Assembly: GCA_964619315.1 (NCBI GenBank)
Contig: CAZUEH010000004.1
Span: 24,285-88,284 of the forward strand
DNA from: an uncultured Oscillospiraceae bacterium
GTDB taxonomy: Bacteria > Bacillota > Clostridia > Peptostreptococcales > Anaerovoracaceae
Reading direction: 5' to 3'
Length of the DNA stretch: 64,000 nucleotides
Translations under genes and position numbers: made by a program
Part shown: positions 271-55,179 of the stretch, piece after piece
Layout of the letters: every line of letters starts with the position of its first letter
How positions within the stretch are numbered: position 1 is the stretch's first letter
Notes under the pieces: model-generated
Told to the model about the DNA's origin: nothing
Seen by the model: only the letters and a program-made list of their open reading frames with translations
The model's database searches: none

Positions 271-2037
271 TTATTCTTCACGGTATGGGCAATGTCTACG
301 TGTACAGTGTTTGCAATCATGGTTGCAATTAGGTTTACCATCTACTTCTCCACATGCTCTCATCACATGAGGGTTCGCTTCTTTTTTTGGTTCCTCTGTT
401 TTAGGTGCTTCTTCAAGAACATCTGCTGCTTTCTTTATTGAGCGATCTGCAAGCAGTGCTTCTCTTTTGGCAGCTTCAACTTCTTCTGCTGTAGCGCCTC
501 CGATAGCTTCAGGATTCTTGTACTCGCTCATGTCATATCCCATATCTTCCATTTCCTTGATGTGGGCAGCTCTTTCTTCTTCTTTTGCCTTGCTCATTTC
601 ATTAAGTCTTTGAAGTTCCTCAATAAACTGTGCCTTATTGGCCTTTTGGTCTTGCTCTTTTAACTCAACCTTAAGTGACTTGGCAAGAAGTTTAATCGCT
701 CCCGCTCTATGGGTTTTAGAAAGAACGCCTATAGATGCCATTATGTAATCGTTATCTACCAATATTTTAACGGCATCGCTCGGATAAAGTTTCATGCCTG
801 TTTCATTGTCTTTTGCAATCAACTCCATTAGTTCAACTCTATGAGGAAGGTGGGTAAGGGCGCCACCTGTTCCTACAATGTATTTGATTTGTGTTAAGTC
901 TTTGCCTTCTGCAAGTGTCTGTCTGCCTGAAGGTCCATATACATATCTGATTTCGCCTGCATGTCTTTCTACTGCTCTTAAAACAGCTTCTTTAGTCAGA
1001 CGCTCTGCCAGTTTGAATTCGTCCTCTGTCTTTGGAATTGCAACATAAGATTCCAGAGTTTTGTCTAAGTCTATATGCAACTCTGTGTCACATTCTTTTC
1101 TCAGTTTCTCTTCGCCGATAGATTCGATTACTTTCATTCTGTTTACATATACACCCAAGTCGCCTTCAACAGTTCTCTTTGCCTTTGGCTCAGGTGCAGT
1201 CAAAATTCTAGCTACTGCATCAGAATCTTCTGTTACTGCATGAACGTCAGTGGTTGCCCCACCTACGTCGATTACCATTACATCCCCTATGCAATCATAC
1301 AAAAGCTTAGTGCATTCCATAACTGCGCCAGGAGTTGGTATTATTGGCCCGCTTACCATGTCTCTAACATGTTCCATACCAGGAGCGTTAGTAATATGGT
1401 CTTCAAAGGCGTCTTGTATTACCTTTCTGCAAGGCTCTACATTAAGGGTATCTATTCTAGGATACACGTTATCTATTAGGTAAAGGTATTGGCCGCTTTC
1501 TTCATCAAAAATCAGCTTCATTTCATCTTGATTTTCTATGTTTCCAGCATATACAACAGGAGTTTTTAGGCCCATGTTTCTTATCATTTCTGCATTATAA
1601 ATAGCCGTATCTCTTTCGCCGTAGTCTACGCCGCCAGCAATTAAAATAAGATTAGGGTCAATTGACTTGATTCTCGCCAAGTCGGTTCTTCTAAGTTTTC
1701 CAACTGTTATGTCATGGATAATTCCGCCAGCCCCTAGCGCTGCCTCTTTTGCGGCCTTTGCAGTCATATCATAAACAAGACCGTGAACGGTCATTTTTAA
1801 TCCGCCTGCTGCCGAAGATGTTGCTACCATGTCGTCATATTCTAAGCTGTCGATGGACATTTTTTTGCACAAGTCATCTATCGCTCCTTGTAGTCCAATT
1901 CGCACATCGCCTTCAACTACTGACGTAGGTGCTTGCCCCTGTCCCCAGAAGCAAGGATTATCACTGGACAAATCCTTAAAGGCATTTACTACAGTGGTGG
2001 TGGATCCGATTTCTGCTACTAATACATCTACTTTCAT
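271..2037 (-). CDS. GlmL/MutL-family (ASKHA-like) putative reactivase of D-ornithine aminomutase, with a long charged linker and a Cys-rich C-terminal tail
   Basis: The 588 aa ORF has an N-terminal MKVDVLVAEIGSTTTVVNAF phosphate-1-like motif typical of glutamate mutase accessory protein GlmL/MutL. It lies between oraE and orr. The C-terminus reads ...CGEVDGKPNCNHDCKHCTRRHCPYREE. Confidence 0.7.
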   Translation of the reverse strand: MKVDVLVAEIGSTTTVVNAFKDLSSDNPCFWGQGQAPTSVVEGDVRIGLQGAIDDLCKKMSIDSLEYDDMVATSSAAGGLKMTVHGLVYDMTAKAAKEAALGAGGIIHDITVGKLRRTDLARIKSIDPNLILIAGGVDYGERDTAIYNAEMIRNMGLKTPVVYAGNIENQDEMKLIFDEESGQYLYLIDNVYPRIDTLNVEPCRKVIQDAFEDHITNAPGMEHVRDMVSGPIIPTPGAVMECTKLLYDCIGDVMVIDVGGATTDVHAVTEDSDAVARILTAPEPKAKRTVEGDLGVYVNRMKVIESIGEEKLRKECDTELHIDLDKTLESYVAIPKTEDEFKLAERLTKEAVLRAVERHAGEIRYVYGPSGRQTLAEGKDLTQIKYIVGTGGALTHLPHRVELMELIAKDNETGMKLYPSDAVKILVDNDYIMASIGVLSKTHRAGAIKLLAKSLKVELKEQDQKANKAQFIEELQRLNEMSKAKEEERAAHIKEMEDMGYDMSEYKNPEAIGGATAEEVEAAKREALLADRSIKKAADVLEEAPKTEEPKKEANPHVMRACGEVDGKPNCNHDCKHCTRRHCPYREE

Positions 2038-2057: not shown

Positions 2058-2531
2058 CTATAAATATCGCGCGTAAAAACTCATGGCTATAGGTTCATAC
2101 CCTAGCTTAGTATAAAAAGCTTTCGCTCCCGGATTAGTTTCTTCCGATTGGAACTGCAACCTCTTATATACGCTTTTTCTCGCGTAATCTTCAATTTCTT
2201 CCATAACTCTTCGCCCTAGGCCTTTGCCTTGATGGTCAGAGATTATGTATAAATCATCTATAATCAGTGCGTGACCCTCTGACCACACGCTAAAAATAGT
2301 CATCAGATTGGCAAATCCGATTGTCTCTCCATTTTCTTCAATCATGAAGAGCGTTATATATTCTGGTTTTTCCATAGCCTGGTCAAAAATATCTGCCAGC
2401 TCTTCATCTTTGGAAGTATCAATATGTCCCCACAAATTGTCGTCCTGTATCTCAAAGTCCATGAATTCTCTGTTTAGTCTAACCCATTTATTTCTATCTT
2501 CTTGTTTAGCCTTGCGTAACATTTCATTCAC
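2058..2531 (-). CDS. GNAT family N-acetyltransferase
   Basis: The 157 aa ORF carries an acetyl-CoA binding motif A, QGKGLGRRVM. The SD GGAGTG precedes the ATG. Confidence 0.7.
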   Translation of the reverse strand: MNEMLRKAKQEDRNKWVRLNREFMDFEIQDDNLWGHIDTSKDEELADIFDQAMEKPEYITLFMIEENGETIGFANLMTIFSVWSEGHALIIDDLYIISDHQGKGLGRRVMEEIEDYARKSVYKRLQFQSEETNPGAKAFYTKLGYEPIAMSFYARYL

Positions 2532-2653: not shown

Positions 2654-4864
2654 TTATCTGTCGCCTCTTCTTCTCTGTCTTTCTTCTGCTAAGAAAGTTG
2701 CAACGTCGATACCGTGAGAGTTTCTTCCGAATCCCATGTCGATACCTGTCTTAACAGCTTCTTCAGGAATAACCTGAGTTCCGCCTGCGCAAAGGATAAC
2801 ATCATCTCTGATGCCCTTTTCAACGCATAGTTCATGAATTCTCTTCATGTTCTTGTAGTGAACGTTGTCGTGAGAAATGATAGTTGAGCAAAGGATTGCA
2901 CCAGCATTTTCTTCGATACAAGCGTCAACCATCTTTTCAACAGGAACGGAAGTTCCAAGGTAGATACATTCAATACCCCACTTTTCAATTCCGCCATGCT
3001 TAATGTTGATGATTTCTCTCATACCTACTGAATGCTCGTCTTCGCCTACAGTACCGCAGATAACTTTCATGTGCTCATGACCTTCGAACTCATCATATAG
3101 TTCTTTGTCAGTCATGTAATGTGGTTCAGGTGGAATTACAAGAGTAGTTAAGTCGATATCGAAATCAACTCTTCCCTTTAACTCGATTCTTGTACCTTCA
3201 GCATCCTGCATTACTTCTGCAGAAATTACTTCAGGGTCAACCAAGCCAATCTTTCTACCTAACTCAACAGCAGCAGCCTCTGCAACTCTCTTGTTGATTG
3301 GAAGCATCATTGTCATCATAACAACTCTGTCGCCACACCATTCAACTTCTGGAGTGATAATTTTGCCAGTTCTGTATTTAGCAACCTTTTCAAGTCTTGC
3401 TTCTACGTTATCATCGTCAAATTCGTCGATGTAAACGATCTTGCTTCTGTCTTCGAAAGTACATCCGCCGATTAATGCTGCAGGATCTTCAGGGTTTCCG
3501 CCGCACTGTTCTACGTTGTTGTATCCGTAGTGAGCAGTTACAGGAGCCATGTAGTCTTCATCTCTTTCGAAAATGAATCCATAGCCTACGCCGCCTTCGA
3601 TCTTTCTTGCAATACCGTCGCCGTTTCTTTCAGGATACTTAGCTGAGTCAACGAAGAATCCGTCTTGTACTGCCTGGAAGTATCCACCGTTTTCAACGAT
3701 TTCTTCCATGAACAGGCAAGCTCTTTCTTTAAGATCTCTTGCTGTTTCTCTTAAAGGTCCTTCATTCTTAAGTTCAACCATGTCCATAAGACCATCTAAT
3801 CCGATCAAAGTCTGCTTCGCAGTGTCGCAAGCTTCGATGTTGTAGATATGCCAAGGAACGTTTCTTCCTTCGTCTGGAGTGATAGTTGACTGGATATCAG
3901 CTCTTGTAAGTTTTGAGATAAGCATGTTCAGTACGTGAGTAACTGTAGCTTCTCTTGCTGAGGACTGGATGTACTTAGTGTTCATCTGAGCTCTCATCTT
4001 ATATCTGTCGCAAATGTCTCTCAAAGCAACTGCATAAGGTAGATCCATGTAAACGCATGGAGCTGGAGTTGCTGTAGGAGGTACTGTTGACAGTGAAATG
4101 TTTTCTGGCTTAATACCTACTTTTTCGGAGAATCTGGAGTTGATAGCATGCTGAACGATAAGTTCAGGCATTACTTTCCAAGCTTCTCTTGCAGTAGCGT
4201 TAGCATTGTGTGCTCCGTCTATCTGTAGGATGTTTGCCCATGCCATGATTTTCTTGGATTCGCAAGCATCTACGAAAGATCTTACACAGTTAATATCTCT
4301 GTAAAGTACGTTGTACTGAGGATCCTGATGCGCACCGTTTACGCCTTCTTCAGCGAATAGTACTGCAACGTCTGGTCCAGCAACGCCGGAGATATATGAA
4401 TGGTAGTTAATTGGACGACCAACTTCGTCTTCAATTAGGTCTACAGCTTTTCTCTGTGCACGAAGTTGTTTTCTTGTGATAGGAACACCACCGATACCCT
4501 GAGGAGTACCTTCCATTAGTCCATCGATATGGGACTGACCCATATGTCTGATAACCATTAGGTGATCCGCACCGTGCCATGCTCCCATTCTCATTCTTCT
4601 GATATCATCTTCAAATCTTCCGGAAGCGATTTCAGTAGTGATAGTCTGCATAGGCTGTGGATCTACATCTTCCATGAACTTTGCTGGAGGAAGTGGAACG
4701 CTCTGCTTCAAAGGCTTTGATATTTCATGATACTCAAAAGGTCCCATGTTCTGATCTTCAGCTTTTTCTCTCCAGATCCATCCTCTTCTTCTTGGTTCAT
4801 ATTTGTCAAGGTCTTTAAGAATATTGACAATATCTAACTTTTCGTTTCTTTTTAACTCTGTCAT
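2654..4864 (-). CDS. oraE: D-ornithine 4,5-aminomutase, large (beta, B12/PLP-binding) subunit
   Basis: The 736 aa size matches and the C-terminus has a B12-binding Rossmann-like region. The gene is translationally coupled to the 121 aa small subunit and sits in the ord-ortAB-oraSE cluster. Confidence 0.85.
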   Translation of the reverse strand: MTELKRNEKLDIVNILKDLDKYEPRRRGWIWREKAEDQNMGPFEYHEISKPLKQSVPLPPAKFMEDVDPQPMQTITTEIASGRFEDDIRRMRMGAWHGADHLMVIRHMGQSHIDGLMEGTPQGIGGVPITRKQLRAQRKAVDLIEDEVGRPINYHSYISGVAGPDVAVLFAEEGVNGAHQDPQYNVLYRDINCVRSFVDACESKKIMAWANILQIDGAHNANATAREAWKVMPELIVQHAINSRFSEKVGIKPENISLSTVPPTATPAPCVYMDLPYAVALRDICDRYKMRAQMNTKYIQSSAREATVTHVLNMLISKLTRADIQSTITPDEGRNVPWHIYNIEACDTAKQTLIGLDGLMDMVELKNEGPLRETARDLKERACLFMEEIVENGGYFQAVQDGFFVDSAKYPERNGDGIARKIEGGVGYGFIFERDEDYMAPVTAHYGYNNVEQCGGNPEDPAALIGGCTFEDRSKIVYIDEFDDDNVEARLEKVAKYRTGKIITPEVEWCGDRVVMMTMMLPINKRVAEAAAVELGRKIGLVDPEVISAEVMQDAEGTRIELKGRVDFDIDLTTLVIPPEPHYMTDKELYDEFEGHEHMKVICGTVGEDEHSVGMREIINIKHGGIEKWGIECIYLGTSVPVEKMVDACIEENAGAILCSTIISHDNVHYKNMKRIHELCVEKGIRDDVILCAGGTQVIPEEAVKTGIDMGFGRNSHGIDVATFLAEERQRRRGDR

Positions 4865-5229
4865 TACTTCTTACCTCCCTTGAAATCTTCTACTAACTTG
4901 TCCCAACCTTCGCCTTTAGCTAATTTAATGCTAGCGTCTCTGATTGAAATGTTTTCCATTTTTGACAATTTGTAAACACAATGTCCACATCCCTTACCCA
5001 TCAAACCATGGTCAATTGCGTGGTTAACGATAGGCATACAATCTAGGGAAGAAACTCCCATTCTCAAAAGAACGGATCTTTCTACTGAAGGAGTTGTGTT
5101 CTTTTTGCCTAATTCAAGAAGCGGTTCAACAACTTTGTCAGTTAGCTCCCAAAATCTTGCATAAAGTTCTTCGTCAGTAAGGTTTGCAATATGCTTTCTT
5201 CTTACTTCGAAATCATCATCTCTTCTCAT
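4864..5229 (-). CDS. oraS: D-ornithine 4,5-aminomutase, small (alpha) subunit
   Basis: A 121 aa ORF lies immediately upstream of oraE and overlaps it by 1 nt. Size and position match OraS. Confidence 0.8.
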   Translation of the reverse strand: MRRDDDFEVRRKHIANLTDEELYARFWELTDKVVEPLLELGKKNTTPSVERSVLLRMGVSSLDCMPIVNHAIDHGLMGKGCGHCVYKLSKMENISIRDASIKLAKGEGWDKLVEDFKGGKK

Positions 5230-8370: not shown

Positions 8371-9767
8371 TATTTGCCCACAATGTTATACTTTTTTAAC
8401 TTGTGTTGTAAAGTTTGCCTTTTTATCTGCAAAAGTTCAGCAGCTTTTGAGATATTTCCGCTCGAATCAAGGAGGGCATCTCTAATTATTTTTATTTCAA
8501 CCTCTTCCATATATTTATCTAGAGGTGTGTTTTTTTCATAGCCTATGGCTGGAGCCTTGCTTTTCCTTGCATTTCTAGGCATTGCTAAACTTTTTTCAGT
8601 TAGCACGTGTTCATTTTCTCCCATGGACACCGCCTGCTCGATAATGTTTTCTAACTCTCTTACGTTTCCTGGATAGTCGTAATTTATAAGCTTTTTAACA
8701 GTTCCATCAGCAAGCATCCAGATTTCTTTGTCGAATCTTTCGTTATATTTTTGCAGGAATTTTTCTGCAAGTCGAGGGATATCATCAGGTCTTTCTCTAA
8801 GTGCAGGAATTTCTATATTAACAACATTTAGTCTATAAAATAAGTCCTTTCGTAGTTTCCCTTTGGAAATCAAGTCTTCTGGCGGTTCATTGACTGTTGC
8901 GATAATTCTTACATTGATAGGTATGTCTTTCGTTCCACCAACTCGTCTTATGTAATCTTCTTGCAAAACTCTAAGAAGCTTGCTTTGCAGATCATAAGGC
9001 ATTGCACTGATCTCGTCTAGCAAAAGGGTTCCGCCATTGGCCTGCTCAAACAATCCTTCTCTATCGACAGCTCCCGTAAACCCACCTTTGGACGTTCCGA
9101 AGAGGATTCCCTCCAGCAAAGACTCTGGTATTGCTGCGCAGTTTTGGGCCAAAAAAGGCCTATCTTTTCTCTTACCACTATAGTGTATGCTCTGGGCTAT
9201 CAGTTCTTTACCAGTTCCCGTTTCACCGTATATGAATACGGATGCGTCGTTTTCTGCCGCTTTACGAGCACGGTTAATTGCTATTTCAAACTCTTCATTT
9301 TCTCCAAAAATATCATCAAAGGTGTATCTCTTGATAGACCCTTTGTTTTCCGTCGTCGGTTGGCTCTTGCTTTGTTGCAATTCCAAGAGAGTATCAGACA
9401 TTCTTTGTATGTCAGTAATGTCCTTTGCGACCTCAATTGCTGCCACTGTTTCGCCCTCTACAACTATTGGAACGGTGCTGTTTATTGTAGTTATCTCTTT
9501 GCCGTAAAAGTTCTTATAGCTCTGTTGGCTCTTGACCGTGGCTTCCCCATTTAGCAAGGCTTTGAGCATGGTACTATCATTGTTTCGTACTTGCGGAAAG
9601 GCATCATGAAAGGATTTGCCAAGAACGTCTTCCATGTTGACTTTTTCCATAGAGGCCATGACATCGTTGTAAAATCGGCCAATTCCTTTTTTATCAACCA
9701 CATACACACCCTCATCTATAAGTTTTATAAGTTCTTCTATTATTTTTTCGTAATATTCTTTTTTCAT
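8370..9767 (-). CDS. sigma-54-dependent transcriptional activator (PAS sensor, AAA+ domain, Fis-type HTH)
   Basis: The ORF shows Walker A GETGTGKE, a GAFTGA-like loop GGFTGAV, and a C-terminal HTH AAELLQIKRQTLQHKLKKY. It has an N-terminal PAS-like domain and no receiver domain. I set the start at the ATG at 9765-9767, which follows a GGGGGA SD. The ORF track gives a GTG at 9779. Confidence 0.85.
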   Translation of the reverse strand: MKKEYYEKIIEELIKLIDEGVYVVDKKGIGRFYNDVMASMEKVNMEDVLGKSFHDAFPQVRNNDSTMLKALLNGEATVKSQQSYKNFYGKEITTINSTVPIVVEGETVAAIEVAKDITDIQRMSDTLLELQQSKSQPTTENKGSIKRYTFDDIFGENEEFEIAINRARKAAENDASVFIYGETGTGKELIAQSIHYSGKRKDRPFLAQNCAAIPESLLEGILFGTSKGGFTGAVDREGLFEQANGGTLLLDEISAMPYDLQSKLLRVLQEDYIRRVGGTKDIPINVRIIATVNEPPEDLISKGKLRKDLFYRLNVVNIEIPALRERPDDIPRLAEKFLQKYNERFDKEIWMLADGTVKKLINYDYPGNVRELENIIEQAVSMGENEHVLTEKSLAMPRNARKSKAPAIGYEKNTPLDKYMEEVEIKIIRDALLDSSGNISKAAELLQIKRQTLQHKLKKYNIVGK

Positions 9768-9795
9768 CGCTTCCCCCACTCACTCACACGTTAAT

Positions 9796-9834
9796 ATTTT
9801 ATCACATATTTGCCAAGAGTGCAAATATTTTTGC
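9796..9834 (-). promoter_or_regulatory. candidate sigma-70 promoter of the activator gene, overlapped by a third copy of TGCAAATATTTTTGC
   Basis: On the minus strand the -35 is TTGCAC (plus 9819-9824), the spacer is 17 nt, and the -10 is TAAAAT (plus 9796-9801). The third exact 15-mer at 9820-9834 overlaps the -35. Confidence 0.45.
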
Positions 9835-40628: not shown

Positions 40629-41990
40629 ATGGATTATAATAAGATTTGGGAAAGCGTACTTAGCAAAATGGAGCAGCTAACAACTCCAATAAGCTATACA
40701 ACATGGATTCTACCCCTAAAAATCAGAAGGATCGACAAAGAATTAAAAATAGTTTATCTTGAGGTCAATTCAGACAGCAAAAGTGAATTCATCATCAAGA
40801 CTATTAAAAATAGATATATTACCGGCCTCGAAACTACTTTTAAGGAAGTTTTAGAGGATAGTTTTCGTGTAGTTTTAAAGGATTCTGAGCAATATAGAGT
40901 CGAAGAAGAAAAAACCGAACCAAAACTCAAACCTAAAACTAATACTTTGAACCACGAAAAAATATTCAATCCAAGATTTAATTTCGCAAATTTTGTAGTT
41001 GGTAACAGCAATAAGTATGCTCATGCTGCCTCCTTGGCAGTCGCCGAGTCTCCATCAGAAGCTTACAACCCTCTGTTTATATATGGTGCTTCTGGACTTG
41101 GTAAGACACATTTGATGCATGCTATTGGAATTTACCTTTTAGAAAATAATCCTTCACAAAATGTTTTATATGTTTCCTCTGAAATGTTTACAAATGAGCT
41201 TATAAAAGCTTTGCGTAATCACACTATGAACGAATTTAAGTCGAAATATAGAAAAGTAGACGTTCTTCTTATTGATGATATACAATTTTTAGAGGGAAAA
41301 GAAAATACACAGGAAGAATTTTTCCACACTTTTAACTCCCTATATGATTTAAATAAGCAGATAATCATTTCGAGTGACAGGGCTCCAAATAAATTGGTAA
41401 ATTTGGAGGAAAGACTTAGATCAAGATTCCAATGGAACTTAATTGCTGACATTCAGCCGGCAGATTATGAAACAAGAGTTGCAATCCTGATTAAAAAAGC
41501 AGAAAATATGGGTCTAAACTTAGAAGAAAACCCTGAACTTTATGATGTTGTCTGCATGATCGCAGAGAAAATAAAAGATAATATTAGAGAACTTGAAGGA
41601 GCATTGATACGAGTAGTATCTTTCTCTCAACTACTAAATGAAAAATTGGATAAGAATTTTACTCGAAAAACTTTAAAAGATATTTTTAGTAATTTAGAAA
41701 GAACTGTAACTCCTGAGAAAATCAAGAAAACCGTCTGCAAACACTACGGAATAAAGGTTTCTGATATGGAATCTTCTAAAAAAACTAATAATATAGCTTT
41801 TCCAAGGCAAATAGCAATGTATCTTATTCGTGAGATGACAGATTACTCTCTTCCTAAGATTGGACAATTCTTTGGAGGAAAACATTATACGACTGTTTTA
41901 TATGCTTGCGACAAGATAAATGATGATTTGCAAATAGATAAAAACTTGTCCGAAATAATAAATCAAATCAAAGAAGAGTTGAAAGAATAA
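40629..41990 (+). CDS. dnaA: chromosomal replication initiator protein DnaA
   Basis: The 453 aa ORF has Walker A GASGLGKTHL and a C-terminal DNA-binding region IAFPRQIAMYLIREMT...GGKHYTTVLYA. Confidence 0.97.
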   Translation: MDYNKIWESVLSKMEQLTTPISYTTWILPLKIRRIDKELKIVYLEVNSDSKSEFIIKTIKNRYITGLETTFKEVLEDSFRVVLKDSEQYRVEEEKTEPKLKPKTNTLNHEKIFNPRFNFANFVVGNSNKYAHAASLAVAESPSEAYNPLFIYGASGLGKTHLMHAIGIYLLENNPSQNVLYVSSEMFTNELIKALRNHTMNEFKSKYRKVDVLLIDDIQFLEGKENTQEEFFHTFNSLYDLNKQIIISSDRAPNKLVNLEERLRSRFQWNLIADIQPADYETRVAILIKKAENMGLNLEENPELYDVVCMIAEKIKDNIRELEGALIRVVSFSQLLNEKLDKNFTRKTLKDIFSNLERTVTPEKIKKTVCKHYGIKVSDMESSKKTNNIAFPRQIAMYLIREMTDYSLPKIGQFFGGKHYTTVLYACDKINDDLQIDKNLSEIINQIKEELKE

Positions 41991-42156
41991 TAGTTATCCT
42001 AACCATTAAAAAGCATTTAACTTTTACTCCATATAATTTGAACAACCGTTTCTGTTGACGTTTTAATGGGTTTAGAAGTTATCCACAGATTTCACAGGCC
42101 CTACTACTACTATTACTACCAATAAATATAATTATTAACTAATACGGAGGTATTGT
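41991..42156. other. oriC, downstream part: DnaA boxes, GC clamp, DnaA-trio array and AT-rich unwinding element
   Basis: TTATCCACA lies at 42079-42087 and a degenerate TTATCCTAA at 41994-42002. A GGCC clamp follows. Then CTA CTA CTA CTA TTA CTA at 42101-42118 gives 3'-GAT/AAT-5' trios on the bottom strand. AATAAATATAATTATTAA follows. Confidence 0.7.
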
Positions 42157-43269
42157 ATGAAATTTTCTTGTAACCAACATACTCTTACAAAAGCACTTAA
42201 TATTGTTTCAAAAGCAGTCACTATAAGAACCACTATTCCTATCTTAAAAGGCATTCTTCTAAAAGTAGATGCTAACGGGATACTTACTATGGCAGCTTCC
42301 GATTTAGACTTAAGTATAGAGAAGAAGATAAAAGTAGAAAATAGTACCCCAGGCGAAATAGTGGTACTTTCCAAGTTATTTGGAGATATAATAAGAAAAC
42401 TTCCTGATGGAGTAATAACAATTGAAGAAAACGACGGTAAAATAAATATCAAATGTTCAAATTCCGAGTTTAACATAATAGGACTTTCCGCAGAAGAATT
42501 TCCTAATATAAACCCTAATGAAGAAGACACAGAAAAATTAGTTTTCAACAAAGAATTATTAAAAGACATGATAAAGAAAACCTCTTTTGCTGCAAGCATA
42601 GACGAAAATAAAGGTGCTATGACTGGAGTTCTTATTGAAATGGACGAAGATAGCTTAAACATGGTAGCTATAGACGGCTTTAGAATGGCAATAGCAAGAG
42701 AACAAATGAAAAACAAGAAAAAACAAAACATTATAATACCTGCCAAAATACTCACAGAAATAAGCAGAATAATAACAGAAGAAGAAATAAACAGTGATGA
42801 TGTAACAATGGTTCTAAATGAGAAAAAAGCGATATTTGTTATGGAAAACACTAAAATTGTTATAAGACTTTTAGAAGGCGAATTCATGAATTATAACAGA
42901 ATAATACCTACAGAAAACCCTTGCAAGGTTGTATTAAACAAAAATGATTTAATGAACAGCGTAGAAAGAGCATCACTTCTTGCAAAAGTAGGAAAAAACA
43001 ATCTTATAAAACTTGAAATAAAAGATAACGGCATAGAAATAACTTCCAAGTCAGAAGAAGGAAATGTTAAAGAGGAAGTAATCGCTTCAAAAGATGGAAA
43101 TGATATTATAATAGGATTCAACTCAAAATATTTAATAGATGTACTAAAAGTAATAGATGATGAAAACATAACCATGCTTTTCAACACAAATGTAAGCCCT
43201 TGCTTGATAAAACCACTTTCTGGAAATGAATTTGAGTACTTAATATTACCAGTAAGAATAAATCAATAA
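42157..43269 (+). CDS. dnaN: DNA polymerase III beta sliding clamp
   Basis: The 370 aa ORF begins MKFSCNQHTLTKALNIVSKAV and follows dnaA. Confidence 0.95.
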   Translation: MKFSCNQHTLTKALNIVSKAVTIRTTIPILKGILLKVDANGILTMAASDLDLSIEKKIKVENSTPGEIVVLSKLFGDIIRKLPDGVITIEENDGKINIKCSNSEFNIIGLSAEEFPNINPNEEDTEKLVFNKELLKDMIKKTSFAASIDENKGAMTGVLIEMDEDSLNMVAIDGFRMAIAREQMKNKKKQNIIIPAKILTEISRIITEEEINSDDVTMVLNEKKAIFVMENTKIVIRLLEGEFMNYNRIIPTENPCKVVLNKNDLMNSVERASLLAKVGKNNLIKLEIKDNGIEITSKSEEGNVKEEVIASKDGNDIIIGFNSKYLIDVLKVIDDENITMLFNTNVSPCLIKPLSGNEFEYLILPVRINQ

Positions 43270-44354
43270 TGTATATAAAAAAAATAGAATTAAAAAACTT
43301 CAGAAATTATGAAAACCTTGAATTAGAGTTTAATGAAAAGGCGAATTTTATAATTGGCAATAATGCTCAAGGCAAAACTAACCTTCTTGAGGGGATTTTT
43401 ATGTCTTCGGTTGGAAAATCTTTTAGAACTTCAAAAGATAGTGAAATGATTGGCTTTGATAAAGATTTTAGCAAAATTAAAGTTACAGCGCACAAAGATT
43501 TATTTCCGATAGAAGTAGATATAACTTTAAAAAAGGATGCTGGAAAATTCATAAAGGTAGATGGAGTTAATATATCAAAAACATCAGATCTTTTAGAAAA
43601 TGTATATATAGTTATATTTTCACCTGAAGATTTAAAAATAGTAAAAGATGAACCGGAAAAAAGAAGAAGATTTATAGATCGAGAACTTTGTATAATAAAA
43701 CCATCATATTACGACAGTTTTTTTAATTATAAAAAAGTTTTACTCCAAAGAAATACTTATATAAAAGAAAAAAGCATAGATAAATCCGTTCTCGACATAT
43801 GGGATATGCAGCTTGCAAAGTATGGAGCAAAAATTATATCGATGAGATATGATTTTATACAAAAAATAGATAAACTGAGCAATGAAATTCATAAAAGCAT
43901 AACCAATGGAAAAGAAAATCTGCGTATAGAATATGATCCTAACATTAAAATGGCAGATGAATTGGAAAAAACAGTTTACGAAGCTATTAAAAATTCTTAT
44001 TCAAATGACCTTAGGCTGAGAACCACAACAAAAGGGCCACATAGAGATGATATACAATTTTATATAGATAATGTAAATGTTAGAAGCTTTGGATCTCAAG
44101 GTCAGCAAAGAACTACAGCACTCTCTCTTAAACTTGCAGAGTTAAATATAATAAAAGAAGAGACTGGAGAAAGTGCAATTTTGCTTTTAGATGATGTTAT
44201 GTCAGAACTTGATTCAACACGACAGGAATTTTTGATAAAAACCTTATCTGACATACAACTTTTTATAACAACAACAGAGATTACACAGAATCTAAAAGAC
44301 GCAGTTTCCAAAGGAAATATATATACAATTGAAAAAGGAAAAGTAAAGCTATAA
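43269..44354 (+). CDS. recF: DNA replication and repair protein RecF
   Basis: The 361 aa ORF has Walker A GNNAQGKTNLLE, the signature GSQGQQRT and Walker B LLLDDV. Confidence 0.9.
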   Translation: MYIKKIELKNFRNYENLELEFNEKANFIIGNNAQGKTNLLEGIFMSSVGKSFRTSKDSEMIGFDKDFSKIKVTAHKDLFPIEVDITLKKDAGKFIKVDGVNISKTSDLLENVYIVIFSPEDLKIVKDEPEKRRRFIDRELCIIKPSYYDSFFNYKKVLLQRNTYIKEKSIDKSVLDIWDMQLAKYGAKIISMRYDFIQKIDKLSNEIHKSITNGKENLRIEYDPNIKMADELEKTVYEAIKNSYSNDLRLRTTTKGPHRDDIQFYIDNVNVRSFGSQGQQRTTALSLKLAELNIIKEETGESAILLLDDVMSELDSTRQEFLIKTLSDIQLFITTTEITQNLKDAVSKGNIYTIEKGKVKL

Positions 44355-44405
44355 AAAACATACCAGAATCAAGAGATATATACGCTGTTTTTTATAGCTT
44401 TTTTA
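44346..44405 (+). terminator. possible terminator after recF (long stem, large loop)
   Basis: AAGCTATAAAAAACA-N25-TGTTTTTTATAGCTT followed by TTTT. The stem is AT-rich, so this call is weak. Confidence 0.35.
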
Positions 44406-44529
44406 GTTGGAAAAATCGGTTTTAAGAGGGGTAAAAATAAAAAAACAAGAAACAATATTAAATGAAGAATTTATTTGAATAAAACCCCAAAATATGGTAT
44501 ACTAATCGCTGGGATTGTAACTTGCTTAA

Positions 44530-46500
<1,971 letters not shown>

Positions 46501-46518
46501 GGAAAGGAGGGCTTATAG

Positions 46519-49005
46519 ATGACTACATTTTTAGAAGATCAGAAGTTGATTCAACACGAAATCAACAAAGAAATGAAAGACTCATATATCGATTATGCCA
46601 TGAGCGTAATCGTAGGCCGTGCCCTTCCTGATGTCAGGGATGGACTGAAGCCAGTACATAGAAGAATCCTTTATGGTATGAGTGGGCTAGGAATAACTCC
46701 GGACAAGCCACACAAAAAGTCGGCACGTATCGTCGGAGAAGTAATGGGTAAATATCACCCACATGGAGACTCATCAATTTACGATGCAATGGTAAGATTA
46801 GCACAGCCATTTAGCATTCGTTATATGCTAATAGACGGACACGGAAACTTTGGTTCAGTGGACGGAGACGGTGCTGCTGCGATGCGTTATACCGAGGCGA
46901 GAATGACACCTCTTGCGTTGCAAATGCTTAGAGACCTCGAAAAAGATACTGTAGATTATATGACTAACTTTGACGGCGAGGAAAAAGAACCTACCGTACT
47001 ACCAGCAAGATTTCCGAACCTTCTAGTAAACGGATCTAATGGTATAGCAGTAGGTATGGCGACCTCAATTCCACCTCACAACTTAGTAGAGGTAATTGAT
47101 GCTGCCGTAAAACTTATAGATGAACCAGAATCTACAGTAGAAGACCTTATTAAGATAGTAAAAGGACCAGACTTCCCTACCGGAGCTGTTATAATGGGCA
47201 AATCTCACATGAGAGAAGCCTATCGAACAGGACAAGGTAAGGTAGTAGTAAGAGCTGTAACAGAAATAGAAGAAACTTCCCACGGCAAACAGCAGATCGT
47301 AGTTACAGAAATTCCTTATCAAGTAAACAAGGCTCGTCTAATAGAGAAGATTGCAGACCTTGTAAGAGACAAAAGAGTTGAAGGAATTACAGCTATACGA
47401 GATGAATCAAACCGAAAAGGAATGCGTATAGTCATAGAACTTAAGAGAGATGCTAATGCTAATATAATCCTAAACAGATTGTATAAACATACTCAAATGC
47501 AAGACAGCTTCTCAATGATTATGCTGGCACTTGTAGATGGACAACCAAAGATTTTAAATCTTCATGAAATCATCAACGAGTATTTGAAGCATCAAAAAGA
47601 AGTAGTTACAAGAAGAACTATCTTTGACAAGAAAAAAGCCGAAGCTAGAGCACACATCTTAGAAGGTTACCTAATTGCATTGGACAACATAGATGAAATC
47701 ATCAAGATAATCAGAAGCAGCTATAACGATGCCAAAGAAAAATTGATGGACAGATTCAGCCTTTCAGATATTCAGGCACAAGCCATTTTGGACATGCAGC
47801 TACGTAGGCTACAAGGCTTAGAAAAAGAAAAAATCGAAAGCGAATATCAAGAGCTTCTTAAGAAAATCGCATACTATGTAGAACTTCTTGCAGACGAGCA
47901 AAAGTTGATGGGCGTAGTAAAAGAAGAATTGATTGAAATTAGAGACAAGTGGGGCGACAAGAGAAGAACTCAGATCAAGGCAGACTCATTGGAAATCGAT
48001 GAAGAAGATTTGATCGAACAAGAAGAAGTTTGCATCACGGTTACCCATCTTGGATACGTAAAGAGAGTGCCAGTAGACACATACAAGGCACAAAGAAGAG
48101 GCGGAAAGGGAATCACTGGACTTACAACTCGTGAAAACGACTTTGTTAAGAACATGATAATGACATCAACTCACGACCACCTCATGTTCTTTACCAATAC
48201 AGGAAAAGCCCACAGAATCAAGGCTTACGAGATTCCAGAGGCGACAAGAACGGCAAGAGGAACTCCAGCTGTTAATTTCCTAAACTTGATGCAGAGAGAA
48301 AGAGTTACAGCCGTAATTCCAATCAAAGAATTTGCAGAAGATAAGTTCTTGGTAGGAGTTACTAAGGATGGTATAATCAAGAAGACTGCTCTTTCCAACT
48401 TTGATACCAACAGAAAAACTGGCCTCATAGCAATGAACCTAAAAGAGGGAGACCAGCTTATCGACATCAAGCAAACAACAGGTAGCAATAATGTTATCAT
48501 CGTAACTAAGCACGGCAAATGCATTTGCTTCTCCGAGGAAGATGTAAGACCTATGGGAAGAATCGCTGGTGGAGTTAGAGCAATCAAGCTTGAAAAAGAT
48601 GACGAAGTTGTATCAATGGAATTAGTAGAACCTGGTCAGGAGCTTTTGGTAGTTACCGAAAAAGGCTTTGGAAAAAGGACTAAAGTAGAAGAATATAAGA
48701 TTCAAGTTAGAGGCGGAAAAGGTCTCTTAACCTACGACAAGACCAAGTTTAAGAAAACAGGACAGCTTGTAGGCGCTATGGTTGTAGACGATGAGGATGA
48801 CATTATGTTAATCAACTCTAACGGAATAATCATAAGAATGCAGGCCAAAGAAATTTCAAGACTTGGAAGAGCAACTCAAGGAGTTAAAATAATGAACGTT
48901 GGAGACGAGGTTAACATTATTGCCCTTGCTAAGGTTGCAAGAGAAGACGAACTTGAATTAGAACAAGATTCATCCGAAGTACAAGAGCAACTTGAACTAA
49001 AATAA
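46519..49005 (+). CDS. gyrA: DNA gyrase subunit A
   Basis: The 828 aa ORF has the motifs [24 protein letters not shown] and a QRDR-like region [12 protein letters not shown], with the active-site Tyr in AAMRYTE. Confidence 0.97.
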
Positions 49006-49024
49006 ACAAAAGGAGGCTAAACTC

Positions 49025-49426
49025 ATGGCAGACAAATTGAATTTTGTAGTTCCAGGCAAGCCACAATATATAACTATAGTCAGATTGGCCGTGGGTTCTG
49101 CGGCTAACACCGCCGGATTTAATGTAGAAGAAATCGAAGACATAAAAACTGCGGTAGGCGAAGCATGCAAGAATATATGTTGCCACGGATCCGAAGGATT
49201 TGCTGAGCAATATCAAGTAGACTGCTTTGTCGAAGAAGAAAAAATAGAAATTTATGTGACTGACACAAGTGATAGCCACAAATTAGAAAAGCTAAAAAAG
49301 CCGTGTTTTGATTGTCCGAACGAAGGCGATCTAGGGCTTTATATCATCGAATCCCTCATGACAAGTGCAGAACTCGTAGAAGGGCCTAGCCATAAAAAGG
49401 CCATAAAAATGATAAAGGCGAAATAA
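49025..49426 (+). CDS. anti-sigma factor of the SpoIIAB/RsbW (GHKL-like) family, with a degenerate ATP-binding G1 box
   Basis: The 133 aa ORF has an N-box-like segment IKTAVGEACKNICCHG and a G2-like segment GDLGLYIIESLM. Where DxGxG is expected, the sequence is TDTSDSH. It ends in ATGA-type coupling to the sigma gene. Confidence 0.6.
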   Translation: MADKLNFVVPGKPQYITIVRLAVGSAANTAGFNVEEIEDIKTAVGEACKNICCHGSEGFAEQYQVDCFVEEEKIEIYVTDTSDSHKLEKLKKPCFDCPNEGDLGLYIIESLMTSAELVEGPSHKKAIKMIKAK

Positions 49427-50157
49427 TGAACACAGAATTATTCAACCAGTACGCACAAAATCCAACAACAGAACTGAGGAATCAGCTAGTGGAAGAAAAT
49501 CTGTACATGGTTGATATCCTCATAAGAAAATATTTAGGTAAAGGCGTTGATTACGACGACCTTTATCAAGTAGGAGCGCTAGCTCTTGTTTCGGCAGTGG
49601 AAAGATTCGATCTTTCCAAGGGTTTTGAGTTCAAAAGTTTCGCCACGCCTACAATCTTAGGTGAAATAAAAAAATACTTCCGTGATAAGCAATGGAGCCT
49701 CAAAGTTCCTCGCAGACTTAAAGAAACTGCGACTAAAGTGAGAGATGTAAAAGTTTCTTTGAGCACTAGCTTAGGCAGAGTTCCTAGCATAGATGAAATC
49801 GCAGAAGCAGTCGGACTTTCAAACGAGCAAGTAATGCAGGCGATGGAAGGCTCTAAAGCCTATGGAACTTATTCTCTCGAAAGTGCCGCTTCAACAAACT
49901 CTGACGGAAACGAAGACAATCCCCTAGAAAAGTATATAGGCTTTGAAGATTTGGGATATGAGCGAATAGAAACAAATGAAGTCGTTTCAACGGTGTTGGA
50001 ACGATTCAGCGAAACCTACAGATATATATTCAAAGAGAGATTTGTCGAGGGCAAACCACAGGCGGTTATAGCTAAAGAACTTGGAGTGTCACAGATGACG
50101 ATTTCTCGTGCCGAAAAAAAGATCGTAGATCAATTCAAAAAAGAAATACATAGATAA
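49426..50157 (+). CDS. RNA polymerase sigma factor, SigB/SigF/SigG subfamily (group 3 sigma-70)
   Basis: The 243 aa ORF has region 2 YDDLYQVGALALVSAVERFD...FATPTILGEIKKYFRD. Region 4 has the HTH IAKELGVSQMTISRAEKK. Confidence 0.8.
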   Translation: MNTELFNQYAQNPTTELRNQLVEENLYMVDILIRKYLGKGVDYDDLYQVGALALVSAVERFDLSKGFEFKSFATPTILGEIKKYFRDKQWSLKVPRRLKETATKVRDVKVSLSTSLGRVPSIDEIAEAVGLSNEQVMQAMEGSKAYGTYSLESAASTNSDGNEDNPLEKYIGFEDLGYERIETNEVVSTVLERFSETYRYIFKERFVEGKPQAVIAKELGVSQMTISRAEKKIVDQFKKEIHR

Positions 50158-50176
50158 AAAGAAAGAAGGCCATTTG

Positions 50177-51157
50177 ATGAAAAGAGTTTTTTCAGGAGTA
50201 CAACCTACAGGCAATATTCATTTAGGTAACTACCTGGGAGCCCTCAGACAATTTGTCGAGCTTCAGGAAGACCACCAGTGCGTTTATTGCATAGTCGACA
50301 TGCATGCGATTACGCTTCCTCAGGATCCTAAAATTTTGAGAGAACACATATTAGATGTAGCTGCCTTGTATTTGGCAGTAGGCATCGACCTTAAAAAATC
50401 AATAGTATTTGTTCAGTCAGATGTACCGGGACATGCGGAACTTTCGTGGGTACTAACTTGTAACGCTTACACTGGGGAACTTTCAAGAATGACCCAATTC
50501 AAAGACAAGAGTAAAAACAAAGAGTCAGCACCTGCAGGCCTATTCACTTATCCTGTTCTAATGGCGGCGGACATTCTTTTGTATGACACTGACATCGTTC
50601 CTGTAGGAAACGACCAGAAGCAACACATTGAACTCTGTAGAGACCTTGCTATAAGAGTAAACGGCAAAAACCCAGACACTTTCGTAGTGCCTGACGGCCG
50701 CTTCCTCAAAGCCGGTGCAAGAATAATGGCTTTAGATGATCCAACCAAGAAGATGAGCAAAAGCGCAGAAAACATTCACTCTCGCATATCCCTTCTTGAT
50801 GAACCATCAAAAATCAAAAAGTCCATCATGAAAGCAACAACCGATTCAGAAGGAATCGTTCGCTTTGATACAGAAAACAAACCGGGAATAAGCAACCTTC
50901 TCAATATATACAGCGTACTATCTGGAGAGGCCATCGAGGACCTGGAAAAGAAGTACGAAGGCAAAGGCTACGGAGACTTCAAGAAAGACTTAGTTGAAGT
51001 AACAGTAGAGGCCCTTGCACCTATCCGTGCAAAGTATGAAGAAATCCGCAACTCCCAAGAACTTTTAGATGTTCTAAAAGATGGAGCCCAAAAGGCCGAT
51101 GCAATTGCTCAAAAGACAATGAAGAGAGTAAAAGACAGCTTCGGACTAGGGGTGTAG
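50177..51157 (+). CDS. trpS: tryptophan--tRNA ligase
   Basis: The HIGH-type motif is QPTGNIHLGNYLGA and the KMSKS motif is present. I set the start at the ATG at 50177. The ORF track starts at a TTG at 50174. Confidence 0.9.
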   Translation: MKRVFSGVQPTGNIHLGNYLGALRQFVELQEDHQCVYCIVDMHAITLPQDPKILREHILDVAALYLAVGIDLKKSIVFVQSDVPGHAELSWVLTCNAYTGELSRMTQFKDKSKNKESAPAGLFTYPVLMAADILLYDTDIVPVGNDQKQHIELCRDLAIRVNGKNPDTFVVPDGRFLKAGARIMALDDPTKKMSKSAENIHSRISLLDEPSKIKKSIMKATTDSEGIVRFDTENKPGISNLLNIYSVLSGEAIEDLEKKYEGKGYGDFKKDLVEVTVEALAPIRAKYEEIRNSQELLDVLKDGAQKADAIAQKTMKRVKDSFGLGV

Positions 51158-53629: not shown

Positions 53630-54301
53630 TTATTCCTCCCTAAAACTACAGTCGAATTTTTCGCATTGGGCACAGGTGCCTGAATGACAATCCTTTTTTA
53701 TACTGGAAATGCCAATTAAGGCAGAAACTGATTTAGATGGTGACATTAAAAGACTTTCATTTAAGGAAAGCCCTATCTTTCTATTGCAGTCTAATACATC
53801 AAAGATGCTCTTTTGGCTTTCCAAAGAAAAATCCCCATAACCTGGGCTAAAACGAGGCCTAGTGAAAAGCCCCTCTGCCAAACAGTCCTTGGTAATTTCA
53901 TCGTTAAAAGCATTACAAAGACTTTCGATTCGCTCAGCACCTATTGCCTGAAAGCAAAGAGCCTTTGATGGCGAAGTTCGGCCATACCTTGCTATAAGCC
54001 TATCGGGTTCAAGACCGATAGTGGCAGCAAACAACACTATCTTCTTACAGTCAGATAGGTTTTTAATTAAATCTTTGCTATTTGTGGTCATAAAAGAAAG
54101 ATCGGCAATATCCGTTGACACTTCAATGTCAAAAGAGCGGTAGCAAACTTTGTAAGTGAGCTTTGGTGCAAGTTCATCAATACAGTCTTCTACCAGAGCA
54201 AGAACCTCCGCAGACGATTCCTTGCAACCCATGTAGCGTAAGATTTCTTTTTTATTTAATTGGGGCGTGTCATATTTTTTGACAAGAAGGGTGTTTATCA
54301 T
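53630..54301 (-). CDS. stand-alone methionine synthase activation (AdoMet-binding/reactivation) domain protein with a Cys-rich C-terminal tail
   Basis: The 223 aa ORF lies between metF and metH and has the motif RFSPGYGDF typical of the Met_synt_B12 domain. The C-terminus is DCHSGTCAQCEKFDCSFREE. Confidence 0.7.
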   Translation of the reverse strand: MINTLLVKKYDTPQLNKKEILRYMGCKESSAEVLALVEDCIDELAPKLTYKVCYRSFDIEVSTDIADLSFMTTNSKDLIKNLSDCKKIVLFAATIGLEPDRLIARYGRTSPSKALCFQAIGAERIESLCNAFNDEITKDCLAEGLFTRPRFSPGYGDFSLESQKSIFDVLDCNRKIGLSLNESLLMSPSKSVSALIGISSIKKDCHSGTCAQCEKFDCSFREE

Positions 54302-55179
54302 AATTTCCCCAAAATGTTTGATAGATTACTTTGTATTTTCTGTGCAACATCTGGTTTATTCATAGAATAAACATGGACATTGGTTATGTTATTAGCAAAA
54401 AGGTCGATTATTTGGTCTGTTGCATATGCGATACCTGCTTGCTTCATTGCTTCTGGGTCTGAACCAAACTTGTCCACCAAACTCTTAAAACGTTGTGGTA
54501 CATGAGAACCAGAAAGGCTAACTGCTCTTTCCACCTGCTTAGCATTGGTGATAGGCATAATTCCTGCAACAACAGGGACGGTAACGCCTGCTTCTCTAAG
54601 TTTGTACATATAGTTGTATAGCAAGTTGTTATCAAAGAACATTTGAGTGGTTAGAAATTCGCAGCCAGCATCGACTTTTTCTTTTACAAACTGGATGTCT
54701 TCCTTTTGGCTGGAGCTTTCCGGGTGGATTTCAGGATAGCATGCTCCTCCTATGCAGAAGTCAGCACCAGACTCTTTTAGTTCTCTAATAAGGTCGATTG
54801 CGTTGTGATAATGCCAGCTGCTTTTGTCGGACAAATCCATGTCCTGTGGCAAGTCCCCTCTAAGGGCCATTATATTTTCAAGGCCAGCCTCTTTAATTTC
54901 ACGGATTTTTTCGCGAACGGTATCCTTGGTAGAGGAAACGCAAGTAAGATGAGCCAGAGTAGGCACATCATAGAGGTCCTTAATGTTTTTTGCAATATCA
55001 AGGGTATATTTACTTGTGCCGCCGCCAGCACCATAAGTTACACTCATAAAGGTAGGCTTTAGCTTAGCGATTTCATCTGTAGCGGCTTTTACACTATCAA
55101 ATGAAGAGTCAACCTTTGGCGGAAAGACTTCAAAAGATAGGGACAAAGTTTCTTGTTTTAGTTGGTTAATCAATTTCAT
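54298..55179 (-). CDS. metF: methylenetetrahydrofolate reductase
   Basis: The 293 aa ORF begins SFEVFPPK and also has TYGAGGGT and the ALRGD motif. It overlaps the next gene by 4 nt. Confidence 0.85.
   Translation of the reverse strand: MKLINQLKQETLSLSFEVFPPKVDSSFDSVKAATDEIAKLKPTFMSVTYGAGGGTSKYTLDIAKNIKDLYDVPTLAHLTCVSSTKDTVREKIREIKEAGLENIMALRGDLPQDMDLSDKSSWHYHNAIDLIRELKESGADFCIGGACYPEIHPESSSQKEDIQFVKEKVDAGCEFLTTQMFFDNNLLYNYMYKLREAGVTVPVVAGIMPITNAKQVERAVSLSGSHVPQRFKSLVDKFGSDPEAMKQAGIAYATDQIIDLFANNITNVHVYSMNKPDVAQKIQSNLSNILGKL

Follow-up and report, generated by a model that had tools for sequence, protein, structure and literature searches.

A four-cysteine C-terminal module shared by the ornithine-degradation protein Or-4 of Anaerovoracaceae and a split MetH activation protein: a putative site of electron entry for cobalamin repair

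RACE-type activators such as RACo join an ASKHA ATPase to a flexibly linked iron-sulfur (Fe-S) module and use ATP to drive corrinoid reduction (PMC7317905), and RamA-like proteins with ferredoxin and DUF4445 domains reactivate methionine synthases (MetH) that lack an activation domain (PMC5764234). Regarding aminomutases, suicide inactivation of lysine 5,6-aminomutase, and more slowly of ornithine 4,5-aminomutase, gives cob(III)alamin (PMC3958899), and the Fe-S flavoprotein PduS is described as the corrin reductase in diol dehydratase reactivation (PMC2982820). A cluster carried on a short tether is found in ThiC, whose C-terminal CX2CX4C loop binds [4Fe-4S] and is mobile, swinging by about 25 Å (PMC4389238). 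Here, a 64,000-nt stretch of DNA (the window) from an uncultured Oscillospiraceae bacterium (assembly GCA_964619315.1, contig CAZUEH010000004.1, positions 24,285 to 88,284) was analyzed. An open reading frame (ORF) at 271..2037 on the reverse strand encodes a GlmL-related ornithine-degradation protein, Or-4, that carries a 132-residue C-terminal extension ending in a loop of four cysteines (Cys4), and a closely similar loop ends a second, otherwise unrelated protein of the window, a split MetH activation protein. We tentatively favour a reading of this loop as a putative Fe-S site through which electrons may enter cobalamin repair. The Or-4 gene is organized as follows.

271..2037, reverse strand: whole gene, GlmL-related ornithine-degradation protein (Or-4) with C-terminal extension, ATG start, 588 aa, stop codon at 271-273.
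670..2037, reverse strand: ASKHA/GlmL core, aa 1-456, from NF040744, PF13941, AlphaFold2 and Foldseek.
Within 670..2037, reverse strand: nucleotide-binding motifs EIGSTTT (aa 9-15), DVGGATTD (aa 257-264) and GTGGA (aa 389-393), nearly invariant in 118 sequences.
1087..1869, reverse strand: span of the tail-associated core cysteines C57, C203, C242, C249 and C316, from 78 tailed compared with 61 tail-less proteins.
274..669, reverse strand: lineage-specific C-terminal extension, aa 457-588 (132 aa), no Pfam or NCBIfam match.
481..645, reverse strand: conserved helical part, aa 465-519, with a long helix at 465-498, the motif HIKEMEDMGYDMSEYK (492-507) and GGATAEE (513-519).
328..441, reverse strand: variable, predicted-disordered spacer, aa 533-570, predicted local distance difference test score (pLDDT) below 50, with an optional C562 in RACGEVDG (aa 560-567).
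274..327, reverse strand: Cys4 terminal module, aa 571-588, C571-x3-C575-x2-C578-x-R580-x-H582-C583-P-Y-R586-E-E, from 78 orthologues.

The extension consists of a conserved helical stalk, a variable spacer and a terminal Cys4 loop, and is not simply a low-complexity linker. An earlier note on this DNA, made from the sequence alone, had described a low-complexity linker of about 120 aa leading to a C-terminal Cys cluster: the richness in Glu, Ala and Lys (together 56 of 132 residues) and the variability of residues from about 533 to 570 agree with that description, but residues 465-530 are conserved and predicted to be helical. In an alignment of 70 distinct orthologous tails, the stalk shows the consensus HIxEMExMGYDMxxYK and GGATxEE, and the spacer differs in length and sequence from clade to clade. 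The AlphaFold2 model of the tail was informative for the stalk, with helix 465-498 at pLDDT 75-85 and a weaker helix at 517-530, but not for the terminal loop 571-588, which stays at about 60. No match was found in Pfam at E ≤ 10 or in NCBIfam at E ≤ 0.1 when tail pieces of 139, 34 and 30 aa were searched. A microcompartment encapsulation peptide was considered for the helical stalk and set aside: there are no shell genes nearby, and the MetH activation protein would be left unexplained.

The Cys spacing given by the earlier note, C562-x8-C571-x3-C575-x2-C578-x4-C583-P at nt 274-360, proved exact, but the five cysteines are not equivalent: C571, C575, C578 and C583 are Cys in every one of 78 tailed orthologues (100% conserved, at 64-100% identity), whereas the upstream C562 is kept in only about half of them (53%). 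Among 49 distinct tails, Arg580 is present in 48, His or Asn at position 582 in 47 and Arg586 in 44. The Pro following C583 is replaced by Lys, Gln, Arg, Gly or Ser in many orthologues, and the terminal REE, which had been counted as part of the motif, does not belong to it, the orthologues ending in RQE, RKE, GKK, RQV or RNTNY.

The second carrier lies between metF and metH, both of which adjoin it.

53630..54301, reverse strand: split MetH activation (S-adenosylmethionine (SAM)-binding) protein, 223 aa, PF02965 at 34.8 bits (cut-off 25).
53633..53689, reverse strand: its tail, aa 205-223, C205-x4-C210-x2-C213-x-K-x-D-C218-S-F-R221-E-E, from 120 homologues.
54298-55179: metF.
51219-53627: metH without activation domain.

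The gene order metF-act-metH is conserved. The activation domain PF02965 is known as the C-terminal domain of E. coli MetH and from T. maritima TM0269, and the second carrier is a stand-alone member of this family. TM0269 (PDB 1j6r) matched it with E 1.4e-10 (1.3e-15 with the family profile) over residues 18-198 only, the alignment stopping where the clostridial tail starts, and RPRFSPGYGD, the SAM-binding motif of RxxxGY type, is invariant in the homologues. The motif C-x2-C-x4-C-x-[FY]-R closes 117 of 120 homologues (55-69% identity), with C210, C213 and C218 each conserved in 98% and R221 in 97%; a further upstream Cys at variable distance is present in 102 of the 117 motif-bearing tails and missing in the other 15. 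This tail, for which Pfam at E ≤ 10 and NCBIfam gave no match either, appears to be near-universal among the sampled clostridial MetH activation homologues and, judged by these alignments, a broader phenomenon than the tail of Or-4.

Compared position by position, the two tails have the consensus C-x2-C-x-[RK]-x-[HND]-C-x-[YFW]-R in common, and hhalign placed them in register with a probability of 88% and a P value of 3.4e-6, so that the likeness to the MetH activation protein pointed out in the earlier note is statistically real. One metagenomic MetH activation protein ends in CSNACVKCHRTNCPYRRI, in form indistinguishable from an Or-4 tail. Otherwise the two proteins are unrelated, and their sole common point is service to a cobalamin enzyme. 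A chance occurrence had been thought unlikely, and the numbers bear this out: Cys makes up 1.8% of residues in 947 long ORFs (at least 200 aa) from related loci, C-x2-C-x4-C is expected within the last approximately 25 residues of about 9e-5 of proteins, yet two ORFs with the terminal motif occur among the roughly 55 genes of the window, both of them B12 accessory proteins. No other ORF with the motif was detected in 1.27 Mb around 80 Or-4 loci, which held these 947 ORFs, and around 12 metH loci, roughly 1.4 Mb of flanking DNA.

Metagenome contigs were searched with the family-agnostic DNA pattern for C-x3-C-x2-C-x-R-x-[DNH]-C-x-[FY]-R, a limited sample, since the pattern is biased to TGC codons, demands Arg at position 5 and recovers about one third of the Or-4 tails and few of the MetH tails. 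It gave at least 120 matches. Among the matches listed, 13 were C-termini of Or-4 (one Or-4 match, at 64% identity, comes from an organism of 57% GC) and three were C-termini of MetH activation proteins; the remaining ones listed were short or nonsensical frames, nine of the longest being without Pfam match. In viral contigs of IMG/VR, 22 of 24 pattern matches were chance frames and two fell in plausible small ORFs of 61 and 65 aa (L099 2613-2798 and L115 4214-4411, both reverse strand) with CRDxCxxCKRxDCx[FY]R, that is, with the spacing and conserved residues of the tails. One of them stands in a row of small phage genes that overlap one another, the other beside an integrase; neither matched PHROG or Pfam, and they may not be real genes. 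These two ORFs of viral or integrative elements, together with the limited size of the carrier survey, are what speaks for a function unrelated to B12, in which the module would serve generally to sense redox state or oxygen, or to tag proteins for stability, and be present on other proteins as well, and its occurrence on two B12 carriers a coincidence. We regard this as quite improbable: all 16 of the listed metagenome matches in recognisable genes belong to the two B12 accessory families, the flanking DNA holds no other carrier, and the two viral ORFs are without family match and possibly not genes. Within the sampled data the module thus appears specific to two families of cobalamin accessory proteins. 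The tail itself, its restriction within Or-4 to Anaerovoracaceae, its identity with the MetH activation tail and the co-acquired core cysteines are accounted for by no model in Pfam, NCBIfam or the PDB, and the searchable literature gave no description of them on either family; the core of Or-4 is of a known kind.

With regard to its distribution, the closest 120 database clusters, all of at least 81% identity, have lengths of 573-610 aa, and 120 of 120 carry the tail. When GTDB was scanned with one genome for each species, 199 genomes had a relative, and the best 80 loci (68-87% identity) were examined; they belong to Anaerovoracaceae (Emergencia, Senimuribacter, Lentihominibacter, Fimisoma) and to metagenome-assembled genomes (MAGs) of Clostridia. 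Three are cut by contig ends, and 76 of the 77 complete ones have an intact ORF ending in C-x3-C-x2-C-x4-C. By contrast, in an exhaustive search of 50%-identity representatives the full-length relatives at 54% identity or less were 436-480 aa long and tail-less, among them the Or-4 proteins P0241, P0242, P0243, P0247 and P0250 and the true GlmL proteins P0295 and P0312, and the only tailed entries were fragments of the same Anaerovoracaceae-type clade. Several of the tail-less representatives score above the Or-4 equivalog cut-off. Since the tail is kept across close orthologues and absent from distant Or-4 and GlmL proteins, it is best seen, on this phylogenetic pattern, as a lineage-specific accretion, neither an artefact nor a family trait; the statement in the earlier note that GlmL proteins have no such tail was correct. 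The possibility that a strain-specific frameshift, read-through or assembly error made the tail is refuted and its probability practically nil. What could be cited in its favour is one of the 77 complete loci, a MAG (L080, about 9600-9800) in which an A-run of the extension carries a frameshift, a sign perhaps of misassembly at the homopolymer or of true pseudogenization of the tail; even there the Cys4 motif continues in the next frame. The four cysteines are invariant in 78 orthologues, as well as in the other 76 complete loci of different species and in the 120 closest clusters, and an identical 588-aa protein, with the ornithine racemase gene next to it, occurs on contigs from at least three independent sequencing runs.

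The tails did not come alone. In the 78 tailed Or-4 proteins, C203 is Cys in 100%, C242 and C249 in 99% each, C316 in 92% and C57 in 83%, whereas the same columns hold Cys in at most 5% of 61 tail-less representatives. In tailed MetH activation proteins, the core cysteines C40, C53, C85, C129 and C172 are 94-100% conserved, and tail-less TM0269 (1j6r) has A, L, S, L and E at these positions. Both tailed lineages thus seem, from these comparisons, to have acquired conserved core cysteines that their tail-less relatives are without.

Following this, we propose that Or-4 would act as an ATP-binding ASKHA chaperone serving the adenosylcobalamin- and pyridoxal phosphate-dependent D-ornithine 4,5-aminomutase encoded next door, the Anaerovoracaceae lineage having added to it a C-terminal arm of helical stalk (465-530), flexible spacer (533-570) and 18-residue loop C-x3-C-x2-C-x-R-x-H-C-x-Y-R. 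The metal bound by the loop would most likely form an Fe-S cluster, [4Fe-4S] or of another type. Thus tethered, the cluster would accept an electron from ferredoxin or flavodoxin and, in the course of ATP-dependent repair, donate it to the oxidised cobalamin (cob(III) or cob(II)) of the aminomutase; the core cysteines gained with the tail may relay it. In the split MetH activation protein, the electron needed to remethylate cob(II)alamin reductively with SAM would come from the same module. Metal binding, metal identity, electron transfer and the reactivase role are what we infer here, and the full model of a tethered putative Fe-S site feeding B12 repair, which is built from conservation and analogy, has in our estimate somewhat less than an even chance of being right. 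The tail is read as a set of ligands because four cysteines are invariant in 78 orthologues while the surrounding spacer varies freely, and the conserved Arg, His/Asp and aromatic positions next to them suggest a small tethered metal site. An Fe-S cluster is favoured because the spacing merges the CX3CX2C of radical SAM proteins with the CX2CX4C of ThiC, and a cluster with an open iron would fit better than structural zinc because only three cysteines are invariant in the MetH family. A role in electron delivery is favoured because ASKHA ATPases with flexibly linked Fe-S modules drive ATP-dependent reduction of Co(II) corrinoids and because both clients need electrons: MetH has to methylate cob(II)alamin reductively, and the aminomutases end up with cob(III)alamin when they undergo suicide inactivation (PMC3958899).

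The canonical ferredoxin motif is CxxCxxCxxxCP and that of radical SAM proteins CX3CX2C. The description of CxxCxxxxCP as ferredoxin-like in the earlier note is therefore loose, all the more as no Fe-S Pfam model matches and the Pro is often replaced. A ferredoxin-type 4Fe-4S domain (Fer4) was rejected, the spacing being C-x3-C-x2-C-x4-C and neither tail matching Pfam at E ≤ 10, and so was membership of the radical SAM superfamily: C571, C575 and C578 form CX3CX2C, but there is no Radical_SAM (PF04055) domain. As precedents for the spacing, the ThiC loop (CX2CX4C; PMC4389238) and the radical-SAM CX3CX2C are better documented than ferredoxin. As in the tails, CX2CX4C of the ThiC/BzaF loop stands near the C-terminus (C575/C578/C583 in Or-4, C210/C213/C218 in the MetH activation protein) on a tether after a helix, with a basic residue three positions past the last Cys. 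However, the residues between the cysteines differ (CSMCGPKFC in ThiC, CKHCTRRHC in Or-4), Or-4 has no ThiC catalytic domain, and it has a fourth invariant Cys at radical-SAM spacing.

In architecture, Or-4 resembles RACo, RamA and the O-demethylase activating enzyme: all combine an ASKHA ATPase, a flexible linker and a small Cys module, have a cobalamin client and occur in anaerobes, and RamA-like proteins serve MetH as does the second carrier. The RACE-type activators, however, have DUF4445 and a [2Fe-2S]/ferredoxin domain, whereas Pfam finds in Or-4 only PF13941 and neither DUF4445 nor Fer2 nor Fer4; the module of Or-4 is C-terminal, 18 residues long and only a putative Fe-S site, and its client belongs to the adenosylcobalamin radical enzymes and not to the methyltransferases. 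The resemblance is one of architecture and not of family membership. The activators of 2-hydroxyacyl-CoA dehydratases and benzoyl-CoA reductase BcrAD, the 'archerases', are ASKHA ATPases too and inject low-potential electrons by means of [4Fe-4S], but their cluster bridges two subunits (helix-cluster-helix) and is not on a C-terminal tether, and no sequence relationship was detected.

The main rival of the Fe-S electron relay is a structural zinc knuckle, in which the Cys4 loop would hold Zn(II) and serve docking or oligomerisation only, without redox function, the plausible target being the Rossmann-type B12-binding domain common to OraE and MetH. Four invariant cysteines within 13 residues with basic and aromatic flanks are indeed seen in many zinc knuckles, the clients share the DxHxxG B12-binding domain (DEHSVG in OraE, DIHDIG in MetH), which makes a common docking peptide plausible, and no Fe-S model matches. 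We nevertheless consider structural zinc unlikely, if still a serious contender: the MetH activation family has only three invariant cysteines, and the 15 of 117 motif-bearing tails without a nearby fourth would be unusual for it; every carrier seen is a strict anaerobe, and the tail is missing from TM0269 and from some Or-4 proteins; and a role in docking alone leaves the simultaneous gain of core cysteines unexplained. Moreover, the spacing equals two documented [4Fe-4S] motifs, CX3CX2C and CX2CX4C (PMC4389238). A zinc knuckle of the retroviral type (CX2CX4HX4C) was rejected, since the actual arrangement is C-x2-C-x3-H-C, the His is Asp or Asn in MetH activation tails and there is no zf-CCHC hit in Pfam. 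The invariant cysteines might also act without any metal of their own, as a thiolate ligand of Co in hand-off or removal of the cofactor, or as a dithiol/disulfide reductant of cob(III)alamin. Both carriers handle cobalamin enzymes and a flexible tether could let the tail enter the active site, and the human B12 chaperone MMADHC is reported to load methionine synthase via cobalt-sulfur coordination (bioRxiv 10.1101/2023.07.25.550549). For Co-S coordination, however, one Cys suffices, whereas three to four cysteines at fixed spacing with conserved Arg, His/Asp and aromatic residues suggest a folded metal site, and Pfam shows no thioredoxin-like CxxC context; we judge metal-free thiol chemistry improbable. 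Separating the Fe-S, zinc, thiol and B12-unrelated readings depends on metal analysis.

Several points weigh against the Fe-S electron relay. Neither tail matched an Fe-S model of Pfam at E ≤ 10, and both tail alignments used as profiles against PDB sequences gave nothing significant, reaching only an E of about 1 with CIKCKYTDC of A. vinelandii FdI. The four cysteines within 13 residues would equally suit a zinc knuckle, and the AlphaFold2 models of the Or-4 and MetH activation tails, both with pLDDT 54-65, made docking uninformative. The known adenosylcobalamin reactivases of DdrAB type work by cofactor exchange, not reduction, and to our knowledge no biochemical function has been established experimentally for the GlmL/MutL family. 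Tail-less Or-4, which we take to be functional in clusters of the C. sticklandii type, implies that the module is dispensable for the core function. To these are added the two viral ORFs and the bias of the DNA pattern described above.

The core of Or-4 is firmly placed. Residues 3-456 match NF040744 ('GlmL-related ornithine degradation protein') with 710.5 bits over profile positions 1-448 of 448, the curated equivalog cut-off being 600 bits, and the scores against Pfam MutL PF13941 and TIGR01319 are 549.8 bits (cut-off 27) and 268.5 bits (cut-off 204), respectively. GlmL proper, the methylaspartate mutase accessory protein (NF040745), was rejected with 379.8 bits as compared to the 475 needed, which identifies the product of the ORF as the Or-4 paralogue and not GlmL proper. 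Its likeness to GlmL/MutL and Or-4 (NF040745, NF040744, PF13941) lies in the ASKHA motifs and, with Or-4, in a core scoring above the cut-off and a gene position between oraE and the ornithine racemase gene; the tail-less Or-4 orthologues and true GlmL proteins named above, by contrast, are without the 132-aa extension with its Cys4 loop and without the five clade-specific core cysteines. In the AlphaFold2 model (118 sequences) the core reaches a pLDDT of about 90, and Foldseek matched it to PilM, FtsA, the nucleotide-binding domain of Hsp70 and the diol and glycerol dehydratase reactivases 2d0o and 1nbw (probability 1.0, E 1e-5 to 1e-7), with TM-scores that are low despite these E values. This supports the GlmL-like ASKHA core of about 460 aa read in the earlier note: the model and motifs point to a member of the ASKHA superfamily with phosphate-1, phosphate-2 and adenosine motifs, for which ATP binding is predicted. 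Fold similarity and gene neighbourhood suggest a role as B12-enzyme reactivase. The diol and glycerol dehydratase reactivases (DdrAB, 2d0o, 1nbw) and EutA are, like Or-4, ASKHA chaperones encoded beside an adenosylcobalamin enzyme and rank among the best Foldseek matches (E about 1e-6), but the TM-scores are only 0.24-0.30, and these proteins perform an ATP-dependent cofactor exchange, have no Cys-rich tail and leave reduction to the separate PduS.

The presumed client of Or-4, as suggested by gene size, order and motif and by the NF040744 name of its neighbour, is encoded upstream.

2654..5229, reverse strand: D-ornithine 4,5-aminomutase OraSE.
2654-4864, reverse strand: OraE, 736 aa, with the B12-binding motif DEHSVG.
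4864-5229, reverse strand: OraS, 121 aa.

Upstream of or-4 on the same strand stand genes for a sigma-54-type regulator, a 352-aa dehydrogenase, an OrtA/OrtB pair (119 and 467 aa), OraS, OraE and a small GNAT acetyltransferase, and downstream, past the window edge, that of a 362-aa Ala_racemase_N protein of the alanine-racemase fold, the ornithine racemase. The placement fits the ornithine fermentation cluster ord-ortA-ortB-oraS-oraE-(Or-4)-orr, with which the upstream genes agree in size and order, and the D-ornithine 4,5-aminomutase context recognised in the earlier note is thereby upheld. The GNAT acetyltransferase (2058-2531, reverse strand) lies between oraE and or-4; a relative, L002, carries a GNAT fragment and a 144-aa ORF at that spot, so the spacer between the two genes is variable. 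About 10 kb past the left edge of the window, the same genome has a His_Phos_1 phosphatase and a CobU-like gene (L081 12984-13928), and therefore genes of cobalamin lower-ligand biosynthesis near the ornithine cluster.

In the surroundings of the second carrier, a LarC-like 'Ni_insertion' ORF (55358-56128, reverse strand, 256 aa) matches the profile at positions 1-234 of 375 only and has a His-rich run, HLHGGHHHHHEH; no ORF for the C-terminal part of the LarC family profile is found between it and metF, and it may be a LarC1-only or truncated gene. The metF-act-metH genes adjoin a block at 40629-51157 in which synteny with locus L084 places recF, gyrB and gyrA together with genes for an anti-sigma kinase, a sigma factor and a tryptophanyl/tyrosyl-tRNA synthetase; the window therefore probably spans the chromosomal origin region. 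Rfam searched over the whole window gave no family at gathering score, and thus no SAM or cobalamin riboswitch upstream of metF-act-metH or the ornithine cluster.

For gut anaerobes that ferment amino acids, ornithine fermentation and methionine synthesis are central processes, and a tailed member of the GlmL family together with a tailed MetH activation protein provides a concrete, testable hypothesis, namely that the module delivers electrons for the repair of cobalamin. Should the tail prove to bind an Fe-S cluster, it would be a cluster-binding peptide of a new, minimal kind; ATP-coupled reductive activation would reach beyond corrinoid methyltransferases to an adenosylcobalamin aminomutase; and the split methionine synthase common in gut Clostridia would have its missing point of electron entry identified. 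A RACE-like function for adenosylcobalamin enzymes is not known to us. Going further, tail and core cysteines may together be an undescribed, portable putative Fe-S 'electron plug' with which Clostridia equip proteins of cobalamin repair, making Or-4 a self-contained ATP-driven reductive reactivase of an adenosylcobalamin radical enzyme and replacing, on the MetH protein, the flavodoxin/reductase partner. We advance this with considerable doubt; if true, the portable electron plug would account for MetH reactivation in thousands of clostridial species.

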